Positions 12,618 to 60,065 of a stretch of DNA of 64,000 bases are shown one piece after another (positions within the stretch are counted from its first letter, which is position 1; each line of letters begins with the position of its first letter). The stretch is taken from NCBI GenBank assembly GCA_963741385.1, contig CAVUHO010000003.1:257129-321128 (forward strand). The letters run 5' to 3'. The notes beneath the pieces were generated by a model. It had not been told where the DNA came from. It did no database searches and was given only the letters and a program-made list of their open reading frames with translations. This DNA is from Candidatus Sulfomarinibacteraceae bacterium (GTDB lineage Bacteria; Acidobacteriota; Thermoanaerobaculia; Thermoanaerobaculales; Sulfomarinibacteraceae). Both the position numbers and the translations under genes were made by a program.

Positions 12618-12785
12618 GGGATCGGATCTTGGATATTGATTTCTGATATTGGATCCGTCCACCCATTCGGCAGCCGGGACGGCTGCCCCACAACCGTCTG
12701 TCAGCATCTTGTGGGGCACGCGTCTCGCGTGCCGGGCGGGTGGATGGATCGAGCACCGAGTATCGCGCATCCAGTATCATCCTCT
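12618..12785. repeat. composite intergenic repeat: degenerate 7-mers, CCACCC core and inverted REP pair
   Basis: GGCAGCCGGGACGGCTGCCCCACAA (12669-12693) faces TTGTGGGGCACGCGTCTCGCGTGCC (12709-12733), flanked by CCACCC/GGGTGG and degenerate 7-nt periodic tracts. Confidence 0.7.
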
Positions 12786-12787
12786 GC

Positions 12788-13162
12788 ATGCCACGCATCT
12801 CGCGGTTCTCCGAGTTCGACCTCACCGAACAGCGATCGCGTTTCTACGCCGCTGCCGTGCCGGCAGGAACGCTCGACGATGTCAAGGAGGCGCTCGCTGA
12901 ACGCAAGAAGAAGTACCACAAGGCGCGCCACCACTGCTGGGCGTGCCGGGTGCGGGACGAAAACGGGCAGGTGGTGGAGCAGGCGCGGGACGACGGCGAG
13001 GTCGGCCGACCGGGGATGAAGATGCTCGAGCTGCTTCGCCACCACGACCTCGAGGGCCTGCTGGTGGTGTCGCGGATCTTCGGCGGCGTCAAGCTCGGCC
13101 CGGGAGGCGTGGGTCGTGCCTTTCGCGATGCCGCCGAGGGTGCACTGCGAGGCCTCTCGTAG
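12788..13162 (+). CDS. yigZ: YigZ/IMPACT family protein (N-terminal domain only)
   Basis: SRFYA, ARHHCWA, DDGE..RPG, VVSRIFGGVKLGPGG. Confidence 0.85.
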   Translation: MPRISRFSEFDLTEQRSRFYAAAVPAGTLDDVKEALAERKKKYHKARHHCWACRVRDENGQVVEQARDDGEVGRPGMKMLELLRHHDLEGLLVVSRIFGGVKLGPGGVGRAFRDAAEGALRGLS

Positions 13163-13221
13163 GGCGTCCGCGAGGCGGTCATTCCGCAATCCGAAATCCG
13201 AATTCTGGATGGGTGGGCTGG

Positions 13222-13323
13222 GTCCAATCTCTCCATGTGCCACGGTTTTTTTCCCGCGGTGTATGGGAGTTGGCCTGAATTGTGGGCGTGGAGTCTTGTC
13301 GTGAGGTTGCTGGTGGAGCCGAA
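13222..13323 (-). pseudogene. GIY-YIG endonuclease fragment
   Basis: FGSTSNLTTRLHAHNSGQLPYTAGKKPWHMERL matches the GIY-YIG core pattern G-x-T-x-N-L-x-x-R-L-x-x-H-N-x-G...YT...PW; no intact start or C-terminus. Confidence 0.6.
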
Positions 13324-13479
13324 GGCGTCGACACTGCGGGACAGCGGCGCAATGTGAACGCGGTCGGGTCGCAGAGCGAGCCGGCCTGCGGTCACGCGGC
13401 GACGGTCCGTAGACCGATTCCCTTCGGCTGAGCCAGAGACGAGAAAAGCCGCCCGTAAGGGCGGCGAATTCGAAGTCTC
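13311..13479 (-). repeat. 169-bp tRNA-Ala-3'-end-tagged unit (third copy)
   Basis: Same unit as 20191-20359 and 20360-20528; contains terminator hairpin 13448-13465. Confidence 0.95.
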
Positions 13480-13505
13480 TGGTGGAGCCGCGAAGAATTC
13501 GAACC
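13480..13505 (-). other. att-like displaced tRNA-Ala 3' end (T-arm mimic plus CGGCTCCACCA)
   Basis: Minus strand GGTTCGAATTCTTCGCGGCTCCACCA versus tRNA GGGTTCGATCCCCTTCGGCTCCACCA. Confidence 0.7.
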
Positions 13506-13697
13506 ACAGCGTTCATCCCAATCGAAGTGCCGATCCTCGAGACCAGGATGCCGCCGATTTATCAGCGAATTGCCGTGAAGGCGAATCTACTCCATGAGCT
13601 TGGGTTGAGTCAGTCAGAGATTGGGCGCCGGTTGGGGGTTGATCGTTGGGCTGTCGGAAAGGCCCTTCGGTGGCTCGCAAAACAAAAGACAGGTTGA
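13482..13697 (+). CDS. small helix-turn-helix protein starting inside the att-like site
   Basis: LHELGLSQSEIGRRLGVDRWAVGKAL is an HTH pattern; start codon uncertain. Confidence 0.5.
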   Translation: MEPRRIRTTAFIPIEVPILETRMPPIYQRIAVKANLLHELGLSQSEIGRRLGVDRWAVGKALRWLAKQKTG

Positions 13698-13699
13698 AC

Positions 13700-57521: not shown

Positions 57522-57846
57522 CCGGCTCGTCGTCCTCGACGACGACTGCGGTGCCATAGGCGAGGAGTTCCGACGCGCCCTGCATGAGTTCTGACGTGGC
57601 GAACCGCGTCATGATGACCGCGTTCGCGCCCAGCTCTTCGGCCTCTTCCACCATCCGGTCGAGGGCCTGCTCGCGGGCCTCGGCCATCATCTTGGTGTAC
57701 TCGGAGATCTCGCCGCCCACGATGTTGCGCAGCACGGCCAAGATGTCCTTTCCGATATGGCGCGCACGAATTGTATTGCCCCGCACCAGACCGAGAGTTC
57801 GGACCACCCGCTTCCCCACGATGCGGTTGTCGGTGATGACGATCAT
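57505..57846 (-). CDS. YbjQ/UPF0145 family protein
   Basis: LGLVRGNTIRARHIGKD, VGGEISEYT, AREQALDRM, YGTAV. Confidence 0.95.
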   Translation of the reverse strand: MIVITDNRIVGKRVVRTLGLVRGNTIRARHIGKDILAVLRNIVGGEISEYTKMMAEAREQALDRMVEEAEELGANAVIMTRFATSELMQGASELLAYGTAVVVEDDEPAKTSR

Positions 57847-58286
57847 TTCTTCACCTCCCGGTAGCGGTCGGTCTTCGCCGAGGCGATGCGGTCCAGTACC
57901 ACCGAGGTGAAGAGGAGAGCCAGCGCGCTCAACCCGCCGAACACCAGCACGCGCTCGAAGAGATTGGCCGACGACTGCCAGAACTGCCACAGACCGTAGC
58001 TGATGACCGCCGCCAGCCACACCAGCCCCAGCGCCCAGCCCGAGCCCCGAGCCAGAAAGCTCGAAGTGGTGCGGGGCAGTTCGTCCCACTGGTCGTCGGC
58101 GGGTTTCGAGAACACGGTGGACATGGTTGCCTCCCGGAGAGCCTGCAGGTCCGCCAGCAAACCGCGGCAGTGGGCGCAGTCCTCGAGGTGAATCGTGACC
58201 TTCTGCTCCGCGGACTGGGTCAACTCGCCGTCGAGATGTCCCGAAAGCATGGTCTCGTCAAATGCGCGGGGGCACTGATCAGGCAT
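57843..58286 (-). CDS. zf-HC2 anti-sigma factor (membrane)
   Basis: LSGHLDGEL...HLEDCAHC; two C-terminal TM segments; overlaps the sigma stop. Confidence 0.88.
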   Translation of the reverse strand: MPDQCPRAFDETMLSGHLDGELTQSAEQKVTIHLEDCAHCRGLLADLQALREATMSTVFSKPADDQWDELPRTTSSFLARGSGWALGLVWLAAVISYGLWQFWQSSANLFERVLVFGGLSALALLFTSVVLDRIASAKTDRYREVKK

Positions 58287-58905
58287 CTCTGGCCTCCCCG
58301 GTGCTGCGCTGTCTGTCATGCACCAGATCGTGCAGGAGACGGCGCGCCCGGTGCAGGCGGGACATCACCGTTCCCCTGGGTATGTTGAGTGTGGACGCGA
58401 TGTCAGCGTAGGCGAGGTCCTGGTAGTCGCGGAGGACCAGCACCTCGCGGTAACCCGACGGCAGCTCCTGCAGACACTCCCAGACCAATCGCTGGAGCTC
58501 GCGGCGAACCGACTGCGCCTCGGGGTCGGGGCTCTCGTCCCTCGGTTCGAACCGCAGCGCGTCGTCGTCCGCGGGCTCGAGGGACTCGGTCCTGCGGATG
58601 CGGTTGCGGCGGGCGCGGTCGCGGACCAGATTGCGGACTATCCGCAGCAGCCAGGGGCGGACCGGCCGGGTCGGGTCGAATCTCCCGAGTGAGCGGAAAA
58701 ACCGCACCATGGCGTCCTGGGCGACGTCGAGGGCGTCGTCGGGGTTGCCGATGAGTTGGAGGGCGAAGACGTAGGCCTGCTGCCGGCAACTGCGCGCGAG
58801 TTCGTCGAGCGCCGCCGCTTCGCCGTGCTGGGCGAGCACGACCGTGTGCGATTCAACCGGCAGATCGGCCGCAAAAGCGGCAGGCACTGGCTGGCGGCTG
58901 GTCAT
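58279..58905 (-). CDS. ECF RNA polymerase sigma-70 factor
   Basis: DALDVAQDAMVRFFRSL..FD, PWLLRIVRN, YADIASTLNIPRGTVMSRLHRAR. Confidence 0.95.
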   Translation of the reverse strand: MTSRQPVPAAFAADLPVESHTVVLAQHGEAAALDELARSCRQQAYVFALQLIGNPDDALDVAQDAMVRFFRSLGRFDPTRPVRPWLLRIVRNLVRDRARRNRIRRTESLEPADDDALRFEPRDESPDPEAQSVRRELQRLVWECLQELPSGYREVLVLRDYQDLAYADIASTLNIPRGTVMSRLHRARRLLHDLVHDRQRSTGEARDA

Positions 58906-59010
58906 GGCGATGCTCACTCCGTTCTGTACGCGCCCGGTTCCCACAAATTCCCTGGCGCTCTCCCATTGCCTCGCCCGGCCGAGCAGCGGTCGAGGTGAGT
59001 TCGTCGTTCC

Positions 59011-59511
59011 TCAGTCGAGCGCCGCGAGGGCCGCTTCGTAGTCCGGCTCGGTCGTGATTTCGTCCACCAGCTGTGTGTAGAGGACGACGTCGTTGTCGTC
59101 CAGAATAACCACTGCGCGGGCACACAAACCGGCCATTGGACCGTCGATCTGCAGGATGCCGTAGTCACTCGCGAATTTCTTGTCCCGCATCATCGACAGC
59201 GGCACGACGTTGGCGAGGCCTTCGGTGGTGCAGAATCGCCCCTGCGCGAACGGCAAGTCGGCGGAAATCACCAACACGGTCGTGTGATCGAGCGATGCTG
59301 CTGCCTGGTTGAAGAACCGGGCCGAGGCCGCACAGACCGCGGTGTCGAGGCTCGGGACGATGTTGAGGACCTTTCGCTTGCCGGCGAACGCCCCGAGGCC
59401 CACGTCGGCGAGCGAGCCGTTGGTCAGCTTGAAGGCCGGCGCGGGACTCCCCACAGCGGGCAGCCGGCCGTTGGTGTTGATCGGGTTTCCTCTGAGATGA
59501 GTTGTCGCCAT
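59011..59511 (-). CDS. tpx: thiol peroxidase (atypical 2-Cys)
   Basis: [38 protein letters not shown]. Confidence 0.97.
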
Positions 59512-59525
59512 TGTGCTTCCTTTCG

Positions 59526-59999
59526 TTACCGGTTCCAGCGTTTTTCGAGGAGCCCGACGACCCGTCCGTATCCCTCCGCGTCGATCGCGTCGAAATGCGC
59601 AGGCTGATGCGAGTCGATGTCGAGGACACCGATCGGCCTGCCGGTGGCGTCGTGGATGGGCACCACGACTTCCGACCTCGTCCTATCGTCGCAGGCGATG
59701 TGGCTCGGGACGGCGTGGACATCGTCGACGACCTGGGTCGCGTCGGCGTCGATGGCCGCCCAGCACACGCCCTCGTGCCGCTCGAGCACCTGGCACGCGA
59801 CCGGGCCCTGGTAGGCATCCACGACGAGTTCGCCGCCCTTGAGGAAGTAAAAGCCCGTCCACGACACGCCGGGCACCTTGTGGTGGAGCAGCGCTGCGGC
59901 GGTGGCGCAGTGAGCCGTGCGGTCGTCAGTTTTCGCGAGCAGCTCTTCGAGCTGTTTCGCGATGCGTTCGAAGAGGCGTCTTTTTGAATCTTCGTTCAC
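59526..59999 (-). CDS. GAF protein, free methionine-(R)-sulfoxide reductase-like
   Basis: [37 protein letters not shown]. Confidence 0.9.
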
Positions 60000-60034
60000 G
60001 GTTGCCTTCCCCTTCACAGAACTCGTCCTCTGCT

Positions 60035-60065
60035 ATTCCGAATTCCGAATTCCGAATTCCGAATT
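60035..60065 (+). repeat. heptamer array (AATTCCG)n
   Basis: ATTCCG followed by three exact AATTCCG; 10 bp from the argS stop. Confidence 0.92.

Follow-up and report, generated by a model that had tools for sequence, protein, structure and literature searches.

Heptamer-armed foldback elements in a Sulfomarinibacteraceae genome are probably gene-less members of an insertion family that carries a PF05635 gene

The intervening sequences (IVSs) of the 23S rRNA genes of Coxiella burnetii and Leptospira are the closest described counterparts of the elements analyzed here, which are short intergenic insertions ending in heptamer-repeat arms in the genome of a Candidatus Sulfomarinibacteraceae bacterium (GCA_963741385.1; 4.77 Mb, 17 contigs, 64% G+C; coded G000). 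The analysis is centered on a stretch of 64,000 nt of this assembly (contig CAVUHO010000003.1, positions 257,129 to 321,128, i.e., C3:257129-321128), referred to below as the window. The Coxiella IVS contains an open reading frame (ORF) for the S23p protein and has a 28-bp terminal stem that is cut by RNase III (PMC4990558). Both the IVSs and the elements in question are foldback insertions with terminal inverted repeats and a long stem, and both can carry a PF05635/S23p cargo gene; the IVSs are, as is proposed here for the elements, tolerated in the transcript and thought to be selfish (PMC4990558). In contrast to the IVSs, all sites in the window lie between protein-coding genes, and none is located in helix 9, 25 or 45 of a 23S rRNA gene. 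Their arms are arrays of about five heptamers, the inner stem is of CCACCC/GGGTGG type, modules resembling repetitive extragenic palindromes (REPs) are nested inside, and most copies, which number in the hundreds, have no ORF.

Several other known systems share part of this design. The heptamer repeats of Xanthomonas (GGGAATC), Nostoc (GGGGAYT) and Beggiatoaceae (TAACTGA) have been explained as G-quadruplexes or translational regulator sites, with no gene named (PMC4692102, PMC4679880). They likewise have a period of 7, about 4–5 units and an intergenic placement within ~50 nt of stops or starts, and those of Xanthomonas often form convergent pairs; however, the AT-rich arms described here are incapable of forming quadruplexes and are linked to PF05635 cassettes. 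Miniature inverted-repeat transposable elements and REPs with their composite form, bacterial interspersed mosaic elements (BIMEs), are similarly small, high-copy, intergenic, palindromic and non-coding, with other small repeats nested in them, whereas the present elements show no target-site duplication and no transposase or REP-associated tyrosine transposase (RAYT) with matching ends, the ends being tandem arrays that are free in sequence and keep their period. The Avd protein of diversity-generating retroelements (Bordetella phage BPP-1; PDB 4DWL) is a basic pentameric four-helix bundle homologous or closely similar to PF05635 proteins, and each of the five protomers in the Avd pentamer makes contact with the same RNA stem-loop (bioRxiv 10.1101/2023.10.23.563531). 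Unlike these retroelements, the cassettes here hold one small ORF with no reverse transcriptase beside it, and many relatives rich in arrays lack reverse transcriptases of the RVT_1 family; no search was aimed at template or variable repeats.

We consider it probable that the window sites are ORF-less members of an old family of foldback insertions, the full-length members of which carry a PF05635 gene between heptamer arms. A census of G000 gave 421 exact period-7 tracts of at least three copies, compared with 8, 14, 17, 2, 0, 1 and 0 tracts of periods 5, 6, 8, 9, 10, 11 and 12, respectively; when imperfect tracts were admitted, 702 tracts of period 7 and 83 of period 8 were counted across the assembly. 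The pattern AAWTCNN x3 + AAWT matched 838 times, and its backward-read control did not match at all. The commonest units among the exact tracts are AAATCCG (228), AATTCCG (98) and AAAATTC (55), followed by AAGCCTC, AAAACTC and AATTAGG with 8–10 tracts each. Tract length is sharply peaked at 32–33 nt, which corresponds to (AAWTCNN)4 + AAWT, i.e., five AAWT anchors, and tracts exceeding 34 nt are scarce. Within the window, Tandem Repeats Finder reported 13 period-7 arrays, and our own scan recovered the same tracts together with their orientation, the cores and three hairpins. Two of the REP-like hairpins, GGCAGCCGGGACGGCTGCC and GGCACGCGTCYCGCGTGCC, occur in 154 and 78 copies in G000; the former, as GGCAGCCGGGACGGCTGCC-CCACAA, also forms head-to-tail arrays at C8:6412-6700 (period 35 nt, at least nine copies) and C8:10690-11300 (period 91 nt, at least seven copies). 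An Rfam search of the window matched none of the modules to a family, the sole match being one tRNA.

The initial annotation of the window, made from the letters alone, had described a composite intergenic architecture of heptamer arms, C- and G-rich cores and REP hairpins recurring at a series of sites. This was borne out at genome scale, where the complete layout is (CGGATTT)n-CCACCC...GGGTGG-(AAATCCG)n, with an inner GC-rich stem and the arms outermost. Cores and arms are associated in a fixed orientation: a G-core (GGGTGG, GGGCGGG and similar) lies within 30 nt 5' of the arm in 148 of the 228 AAATCCG, 53 of the 98 AATTCCG and 29 of the 55 AAAATTC tracts (53–65%), compared with 27, 1 and 1 on the 3' side, while C-type cores near (AAATCCG)n tracts number only 8–10, a few per cent overall. 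Inside a distance of 400 nt, 140 of the 448 orientable arms can be matched into 70 inward-facing pairs, as opposed to only 2 outward-facing ones. Sixty-two complete elements were listed in the form (CGGATTT)4.5-CCACCCACCC-X-GGGTGGGTGG-(AAATCCG)4.5, the exactness of the arm repeats in this list following from how the elements were found; their cores are degenerate, and X, the apical part, is a 6–10 nt loop, REP-like hairpins or other small repeats, the loops being mostly unrelated. Both arms share their unit in 54 of the 73 inward-facing tract pairs within 1.5 kb, above the expectation from unit frequencies. With respect to genes, the positions of which rest on a crude GC3-based caller with exact stops and inexact starts, 158 of the 249 arms with their outer side toward a stop codon begin -10 to +20 nt from it. 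In dozens of cases, the stop codon and the first arm unit run together in phase, for example in TGAATTTCGG, TGATTTCGG, TAGGAATTCGG and TGAATTTTGA.

The link to PF05635 comes from outside the window. A six-frame hidden Markov model search of the whole of G000 identified three PF05635 loci (Pfam E-values 4e-23 and 2e-29), none of them in the window, where only ORF-less elements were found. This agrees with the earlier proposal of a non-autonomous family whose partner is encoded elsewhere, and the suggestion that four-helix-bundle genes be examined for the same arms proved productive: all three loci are flanked by inverted heptamer arms (Table 1). The base rate is given by other short genes, of which 7 of 1513 are likewise flanked, all of them ordinary genes between two separate elements. 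In relatives, arms surround 4 of the 4 best-scoring PF05635 loci and ~18 of 20 further ones (G007, G009, G005 and four sister-family genomes) as inverted tandem repeats, mostly of period 7 and sometimes 6 or 8, with a different unit in nearly every copy. The pattern extends to 7 of 8 plasmid loci (Nostoc, Trichormus, Calothrix, Pseudanabaena, Picosynechococcus, Gemmatirosa and Azospirillum) and ~14 of 20 loci from seven phylum-level lineages, including Acidobacteriota, 'Deltaproteobacteria', Planctomycetota, Omnitrophota, Verrucomicrobiota and Actinomycetota, so that arms, judged from repeat listings and not by a formal classifier, are present at 46 of the 55 loci examined in eight phyla. Close PF05635 proteins have related units (GGATGCA/GATGCTG, GGCTATG/GGGGCTAT, AGCTGTT/AGCTATC, GTTGACA/GTTAACA). 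In full-length elements the gene is the single small ORF, ~120–155 codons long, and the closest solved structure to its product is PDB 2RLD, which has five chains. Among the plasmid cassettes, those of Pseudanabaena galeata and Picosynechococcus PCC 7003 are wedged between cas6/cas4 and cas10/cmr3, with ~35-nt arms filling the gaps on both sides of the four-helix-bundle gene, and several upstream arms consist of AGGAG-type, Shine-Dalgarno-like units.

Period-7 arrays in the relatives (metagenome-assembled genomes coded G001-G040) were counted by pattern searches and not by a full tract census. AAWTCNN x3 + AAWT occurs 31–619 times per genome in all 24 other genomes of the genus and 0–2 times in 16 genomes of a sister family of the same order, named Thermoanaerobaculaceae in the public records of two of its members; the reversed control gave ~0. 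Within the genus, the preferred unit varies by species. Two sister-family genomes contain ~200–245 (GTTGACA)n matches each, often as inverted pairs 60–120 nt apart. A further kind of array, AACGTT plus one or two free letters, was matched 401 times in G017, 149 in G004, 124 in G007 and 32 in G000; the same pattern search found no match in G005, G009 and two sister-family genomes. The element family is lineage-specific in sequence and not in design. PF05635 copies number 70 in G009, 55 in G005, 43 in G040 and 42 in G003, compared with 3 in G000, which points to independent bursts.

A comparison of filled and empty sites in relatives had also been suggested, and both states were found. Alignment A1 covers the region upstream of the gene at 51932 in nine genomes. 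Six of these are filled with 5–6 units ending at the same base, the unit being AATTCCT/AATTCCG in G000, AAATCCG/AAATTCG in G004 and G024, AATTCCG in G021, AAATTCA in G007 and AATTCCT in G012; G008, G019 and G017 have a 45-nt spacer without an array. The outermost unit, AATTCCT, is common to the filled genomes, and such a homogenized interior with edge repeats left behind is the classic mark of concerted tandem-array evolution. TATACTG, 6 nt ahead of the start codon (window positions 51920-51934), is invariant in all nine genomes, whether the arm is present or absent, and is probably the -10 box of a leaderless mRNA.

Alignment A2 covers the site of the minimal element at 31348-31454, where an array-armed element lies between the same convergent genes in 14 of 14 genomes, with left arms shortened in G007 and G021. 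Most arms hold ~5 heptamers, and the unit varies by genome: GAATTTT/AAAATTC in G000, GAGTTTT/AAAACTC, with both arms switched, in G004, G024, G019, G008 and G014, AATTCGG/AATTCCT in G001 and AACGTTC in G017. Left and right arms are more complementary within the same genome (0.727) than between genomes (0.643; permutation p ~1e-4). The initial annotation had spoken of a 'shared core'; the A2 cores and loops, however, are not conserved across orthologues while the arms remain, and the arms, not the core, are the persisting part. No arrays are present at empty orthologous sites, which means that the arms come in together with the element. Resident elements are long-lived, their arm number and heptamer turn over concertedly, the two arms track each other, and cores and loops decay.

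Recent multiplication was observed in G007, where at least 12 PF05635 matches have an identical bit score. The six copies that were aligned (A3) are >99% identical over ~830 nt, from GGTTCATCCGGAAT to ATTTCCGGATGARCC, while the number of units (1–5) and the free letters of their outer (AACGTTNN)n arms vary. Each of the six is located in an AACGTT array, despite the ~4x excess of AAWTC arrays in this genome. At one of the insertion sites, AACGTT arms and the same ends are present in G024 (the closest relative, at 92% identity), where they enclose a 409-nt interior without an ORF, with four units on the left and two on the right compared with two and four in G007, and G021 and G018 have no arms. 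Therefore, arms come with the element, ORF-less derivatives form in place and arm number shifts fast after insertion. Minimal elements can also occur in several copies, one being found, each time just past a stop codon, at three unrelated sites in G000 (41-nt interior, 92–97% identity). G000 and G007 share the C10 cassette as orthologues, located between rpsT and a tetratricopeptide repeat gene and with an intact ORF in either genome, which shows that the residence of such cassettes can be long-term.

A complete member consists of an outer arm of about five heptamers, (AAWTCNN)4AAWT, a GC-rich inner stem, an apical part and the mirror-image stem and arm, the apical part being a short loop, nested REP-like modules, other small repeats or, in the full-length form, the PF05635 gene. 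The window copies, several of which carry REP-like modules and further small repeats, would be non-autonomous. We hypothesize that the arms pair into a long stem, either in the transcript or in single-stranded DNA, and that this stem could render insertion between cistrons harmless, much as the rRNA IVS stem does when cut by RNase III. The PF05635 protein may recognize the periodic arms of its own kind of element, and the five-unit arm length may reflect a pentameric reader. ORF-less copies would form when the gene is lost or replaced, and would be retained, perhaps through co-option as transcript punctuation. The omega repressor of plasmid pSM19035 offers an analogy, as it binds cooperatively to adjoining 7-bp heptads, which may be direct or inverted, and the foldback (FB) transposons of Drosophila have long inverted ends made of short tandem repeats; both are analogies of design only, the proteins and hosts being unrelated. 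A far-reaching extension, which we regard as doubtful and put forward tentatively, is that PF05635 is the dedicated trans-acting partner of widespread transposase-less foldbacks, its pentamer reading five 7-nt units of RNA or single-stranded DNA, thereby setting a 33-nt ruler and helping to insert, rebuild or homogenize the arrays. The prokaryotic excess of heptamers (Xanthomonas, the short tandemly repeated repetitive sequences of Nostoc, TAACTGA of Beggiatoa and the present acidobacterial genus) would then be the footprint of such elements and their ORF-less derivatives, and the rRNA IVSs a special case.

Several observations weigh against the interpretation of the window sites as ORF-less relatives of PF05635 insertions. 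About 70% of the arms have no detectable inverted partner within 400 nt, and because of this the stem cannot be the whole story; in 19 of the 73 inward-facing pairs within 1.5 kb, the two arms of one element have differing units. No target-site duplication was found, the direct repeats flanking 70 elements being no longer than in shifted controls, and we know of no enzyme activity or movement mechanism for PF05635 proteins. PF05635 copy number does not follow array load: G000 has the most AAWTC arrays, yet only two intact PF05635 genes, G006 and G011 have arrays and no detectable PF05635 gene, and in G040, with its 43 genes, AAWTC arrays are absent. On these counts, copy number was rejected as a predictor of the load. 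Arms of the commonest unit around PF05635 genes could also reflect insertion into the commonest existing foldbacks. Insertion of the cassettes into pre-existing foldbacks is disfavored by the empty orthologous sites, which carry no arrays at the only two loci examined.

The rival that survives best, which we nevertheless judge unlikely as a general explanation, assigns the arrays to the host: they would be selected sites for a lineage-specific DNA- or RNA-binding factor, promoter or UP-like elements or 3'-end stabilizers, in which PF05635 cassettes merely prefer to insert. The positions speak for it, as arms lie exactly at stops and just upstream of starts, one of them adjoins the invariant -10-like TATACT of a probably leaderless gene, and arms are kept in place across the genus while inner parts decay. 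Arrays also persist in genomes without a detectable PF05635 gene, and GTTGACA, the dominant heptamer of sister-family genomes G039 and G030, includes the -35 consensus TTGACA; for the units of the present genus, a by-eye comparison with the -35/-10 hexamers gave weak matches (3–4 of 6). However, orthologous sites that lack the element function without any array, and the unit varies freely by species and site, which is odd for a single host factor. The six G007 copies are confined to AACGTT arrays, and no candidate host factor was found. An intrinsic terminator was rejected from the sequence: the minimal element (31347-31456) is predicted to fold, whichever strand is read, into a hairpin of ~50 bp (-54 and -56 kcal/mol, with z-scores of -8.3 and -9.6), and on each strand this hairpin has the U-rich arm on its 5' side and the A-rich arm on its 3' side, the reverse of the terminator order. 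For old, positionally conserved copies, a host function is possible.

The mechanism favored in the initial annotation, namely REP/BIME-type spread by a RAYT (Y1/HUH) transposase or templated repeat addition by a reverse transcriptase, now appears very improbable. G000 does contain REP-like nested hairpins in the numbers given above, 12 Y1_Tnp genes (mostly frames of ~330–345 aa) and three RVT_1 genes (C8:174480, C8:337585 and C10:1126233; near-identical scores, 499-aa frames), the latter being group-II-intron-like by size and likely copies of one such intron. Avd-type proteins, moreover, partner reverse transcriptases in diversity-generating retroelements (bioRxiv 10.1101/2023.10.23.563531). 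Nevertheless, 11 of the 12 Y1_Tnp genes were checked, and none of them lies within 600 nt of an arm or within 400 nt of a REP hairpin; such genes are just as common in the sister family, whose genomes are without these arrays. RAYT was therefore rejected as the mobilizer. No transposase-bearing element with heptamer-arm ends was found. RVT_1 is absent from array-rich G009, with its 70 PF05635 genes, and from G004, G002, G015, G018, G021 and G024, so that dependence on a reverse transcriptase is unsupported by co-occurrence. The unlike arms of otherwise identical G007 copies, which could suggest rebuilding at insertion, need no such step, because at one orthologous site G007 and G024 differ in arm number through change in place, for which rapid slippage suffices. 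Four Y1_Tnp-domain genes (frames of ~326–333 aa) cluster within 12 kb at C4:5706-17653 of G000, none flanked by REPs or arms.

Plain slippage-made simple-sequence repeats or G-quadruplex repeats of the Xanthomonas GGGAATC type, with no element and no partner protein, can practically be set aside, for although heptamer repeats are over-represented in many bacteria with a four-unit preference in Xanthomonas (PMC4692102), arm copy number changes fast in place and the cores GGGAGGGTGGGTGGG and GGGGGAGGGCGGGCGGG are G-quadruplex-type motifs, the fixed core orientation, inverted pairing, arm co-variation and PF05635 link are unexpected under free slippage, the units AAATCCG, AATTCCG and AAAATTC have no G-run and show the same 4–5-unit preference, and the G-rich cores are not conserved across orthologues.

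If the link between protein and arrays proves functional, the family would represent a new kind of mobile or semi-domesticated element that resides inside transcripts without a recognizable transposase. To our knowledge, the very large PF05635 family has been assigned a function only in diversity-generating retroelements. With PF05635 and arrays tied together within one genus, the heptamer repeats of bacteria gain a candidate protein partner. The evolution of the arrays is unusual in that position, period and length are conserved while sequence is free, yet concerted on both arms. Material for tests is available: a single genome encodes two intact proteins whose cognate arm units are known, orthologous sites exist in filled, ORF-less and empty states, and G007 has undergone a recent burst.

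Within the window (Table 1), period-7 tracts lie at or a few bases from every coordinate named in the initial annotation, and its placement of the CCACCC(ACC) and GG(T)GGG cores was confirmed, as was that of the hairpins GGCAGCCGGGACGGCTGCC, CCACAA...TTGTGG and GGCACGCGTCYCGCGTGCC. Its description of one architecture with inverted arms held for part of the sites: two inverted arrays are present at 31348-31454, 47888-48149 and, in decayed form, 12618-12790, whereas the remaining sites are half elements, with direct arms at 29782/30212 and single arms at 49907, 51031, 51880 and 60033. The sites at 13180 and 20057 have the arm first and the G-core second. The 'ACGTTNA' tract at 48015 is one of the separate AACGTT-anchored kind, with a period of 7–8.

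Table 1. Positions and composition of the heptamer-armed elements of the window, and of the PF05635 loci of the same assembly (window coordinates unless a contig is given; hp, hairpin)
Feature	Position	Strand	Composition
Period-7 tracts (sequence and repeat scan)	13180-13205; 20057-20083; 29782-29826; 30212-30243; 31348-31384 + 31421-31453; 47888-47916 + 48112-48149; 49907-49935; 51031-51053; 51880-51916; 60033-60067		
Decayed complete element	12618..12790	.	degenerate left arm 12618-12658; C-core GTCCACCCATTC 12657-12668; REP module hp1 12669-12687, hp2 12688-12714, hp3 12715-12733; G-core GGGCGGGTGGATGG 12734-12747; degenerate right arm 12748-12790
Short tract	13180..13219	+	(AATCCGA)2.9, then GGATGGGTGGG; order opposite to usual
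Single arm	29782..29826	+	(AAATCCG)5.7 in divergent intergenic region; direct orientation relative to arm at 30212
Half element	29988..30243	+	cargo of 37-nt tandem repeats 29988-30164; G-core GGGAGGGTGGGTGGG 30201-30215; arm (AAATCCG)3.9 30216-30241
Complete minimal element	31348..31454	.	between convergent genes; left arm (GAATTTT)4.7; C-core CCTCCACCCACCCACC 31383-31398; loop; GGGGGAGGGCGGGCGGG 31405-31421; right arm AATTCAA/AATTCAT x4.6
Complete element with cargo	47888..48149	.	left arm (AATTTTG)3.6 47888-47916; C-core 47917-47929; hp1 47930-47948; hp2 47949-47969; AACGTTC tract 48015-48038; module GGCACCTCCACCGCGCGCGGTCCCACCCACCC 48041-48073; right arm 48112-48149
Left arm without right arm	49907..50085	+	(ATTTCGG)3.6; C-core CCACCCACCCTCCCACC 49936-49952; G-core GAGGGTGGGTGGAG 49973-49986; ~177-nt dispersed module
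Half element	50984..51053	+	C-core CCCACCCACCC 50984-50994; hp1 50995-51013; G-core GGGTAGGTGGTGG 51014-51026; arm (AAATCCG)2.7 51032-51051
Half element with REP module	51690..51925	+	module 51690-51727; C-core 51728-51739; hp1 51740-51758; hp2 51759-51790; hp3 51791-51809; G-core GTTGGGGCGGG 51870-51880; arm (AATTCCT AATTCCG)2.5 51880-51916
Single core-less arm	60033..60067	.	(ATTCCGA)4.4, in the gap from the stop of a minus-strand gene to the ribosome-binding site and start of the following gene
PF05635 locus	C10:448978-449335		arms GGGGCTT.../...AAGCCTC
PF05635 locus	C3:574596-575061		arms (AATTTTG)n and (AATTCAA)n, AAAATTC unit
PF05635 locus, frameshifted gene	C3:576222-576880		full layout TGA-(ATTTCGG)4-CCCCCTCCCGCCCCC ... 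GGGCGGGTGGGTGG-(AAATCCG)4, with C- and G-cores

The arms of the window are closely fitted to the neighboring genes. The TGA stop at 31356-31358 is provided by the first left-arm unit of the minimal element, and the left arm (ATTTCGG)3.6 starts at the TAA stop at 49906-49908. On the gene-start side, arms end 15–30 nt ahead of the start codon (51053 to 51072; 51916 to 51932): the arm at 51032-51051 ends 20 nt ahead of the ATG at 51072, and that at 51880-51916 adjoins TATACT at 51920-51925, 6 nt ahead of the ATG at 51932. The arm at 30216-30241 lies ~30 nt upstream of the start of a response-regulator gene. Stable folds are predicted for the stretch 12650-12760 (-72.3 kcal/mol, z -6.4) and for the half element at 50984-51053 (-41.4 kcal/mol, z -4.4). 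In G004, the counterpart of 47888-48149 has arms (TTGAGTT)4.6 and (GAAATCC)4.9, orthology being taken from synteny without alignment, and at the intergenic site of the 50984-51053 element the left arm is (AATTCGG)4.4 and the right one is decayed.

The tract at 13180-13219 recurs at 20057-20099, with the arm before the G-core at each, both being copies of one segmental duplication in which 13090-13400 (gene end, heptamer tract and G-core) is copied at 19965-20280. A 169-nt unit repeated 2.1 times at 20190-20550 is a copy of the 3' part of a tRNA plus flank, the tRNA gene itself being adjacent (20532-20604, minus strand). The tandem arrays at 29988-30164 (37-nt unit, 4.8 copies) and 62321-62403 (34-nt unit, 2.4 copies) contain TGTCATCCCGACCGA-type sequence, a second dispersed repeat family that is nested in heptamer-armed elements elsewhere in G000. 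The ~177-nt module at 49909-50085 is present in at least 12 copies in G000 and, at 75–90% identity, in other genomes of the genus; it holds a long internal hairpin (GGAGCCAC...CCATTTTCAACATTGTTGG / CCAACAATTTTGAAGGTGGCTCC) and could be a small RNA or another non-autonomous element. Finally, an octamer array, (TTCGGAAT)4.2, is located in G004 (G004:C22:359821-359853) at about the expected orthologous position of the arm at 30216, a placement made without alignment, and may represent a shift of period from heptamer to octamer.

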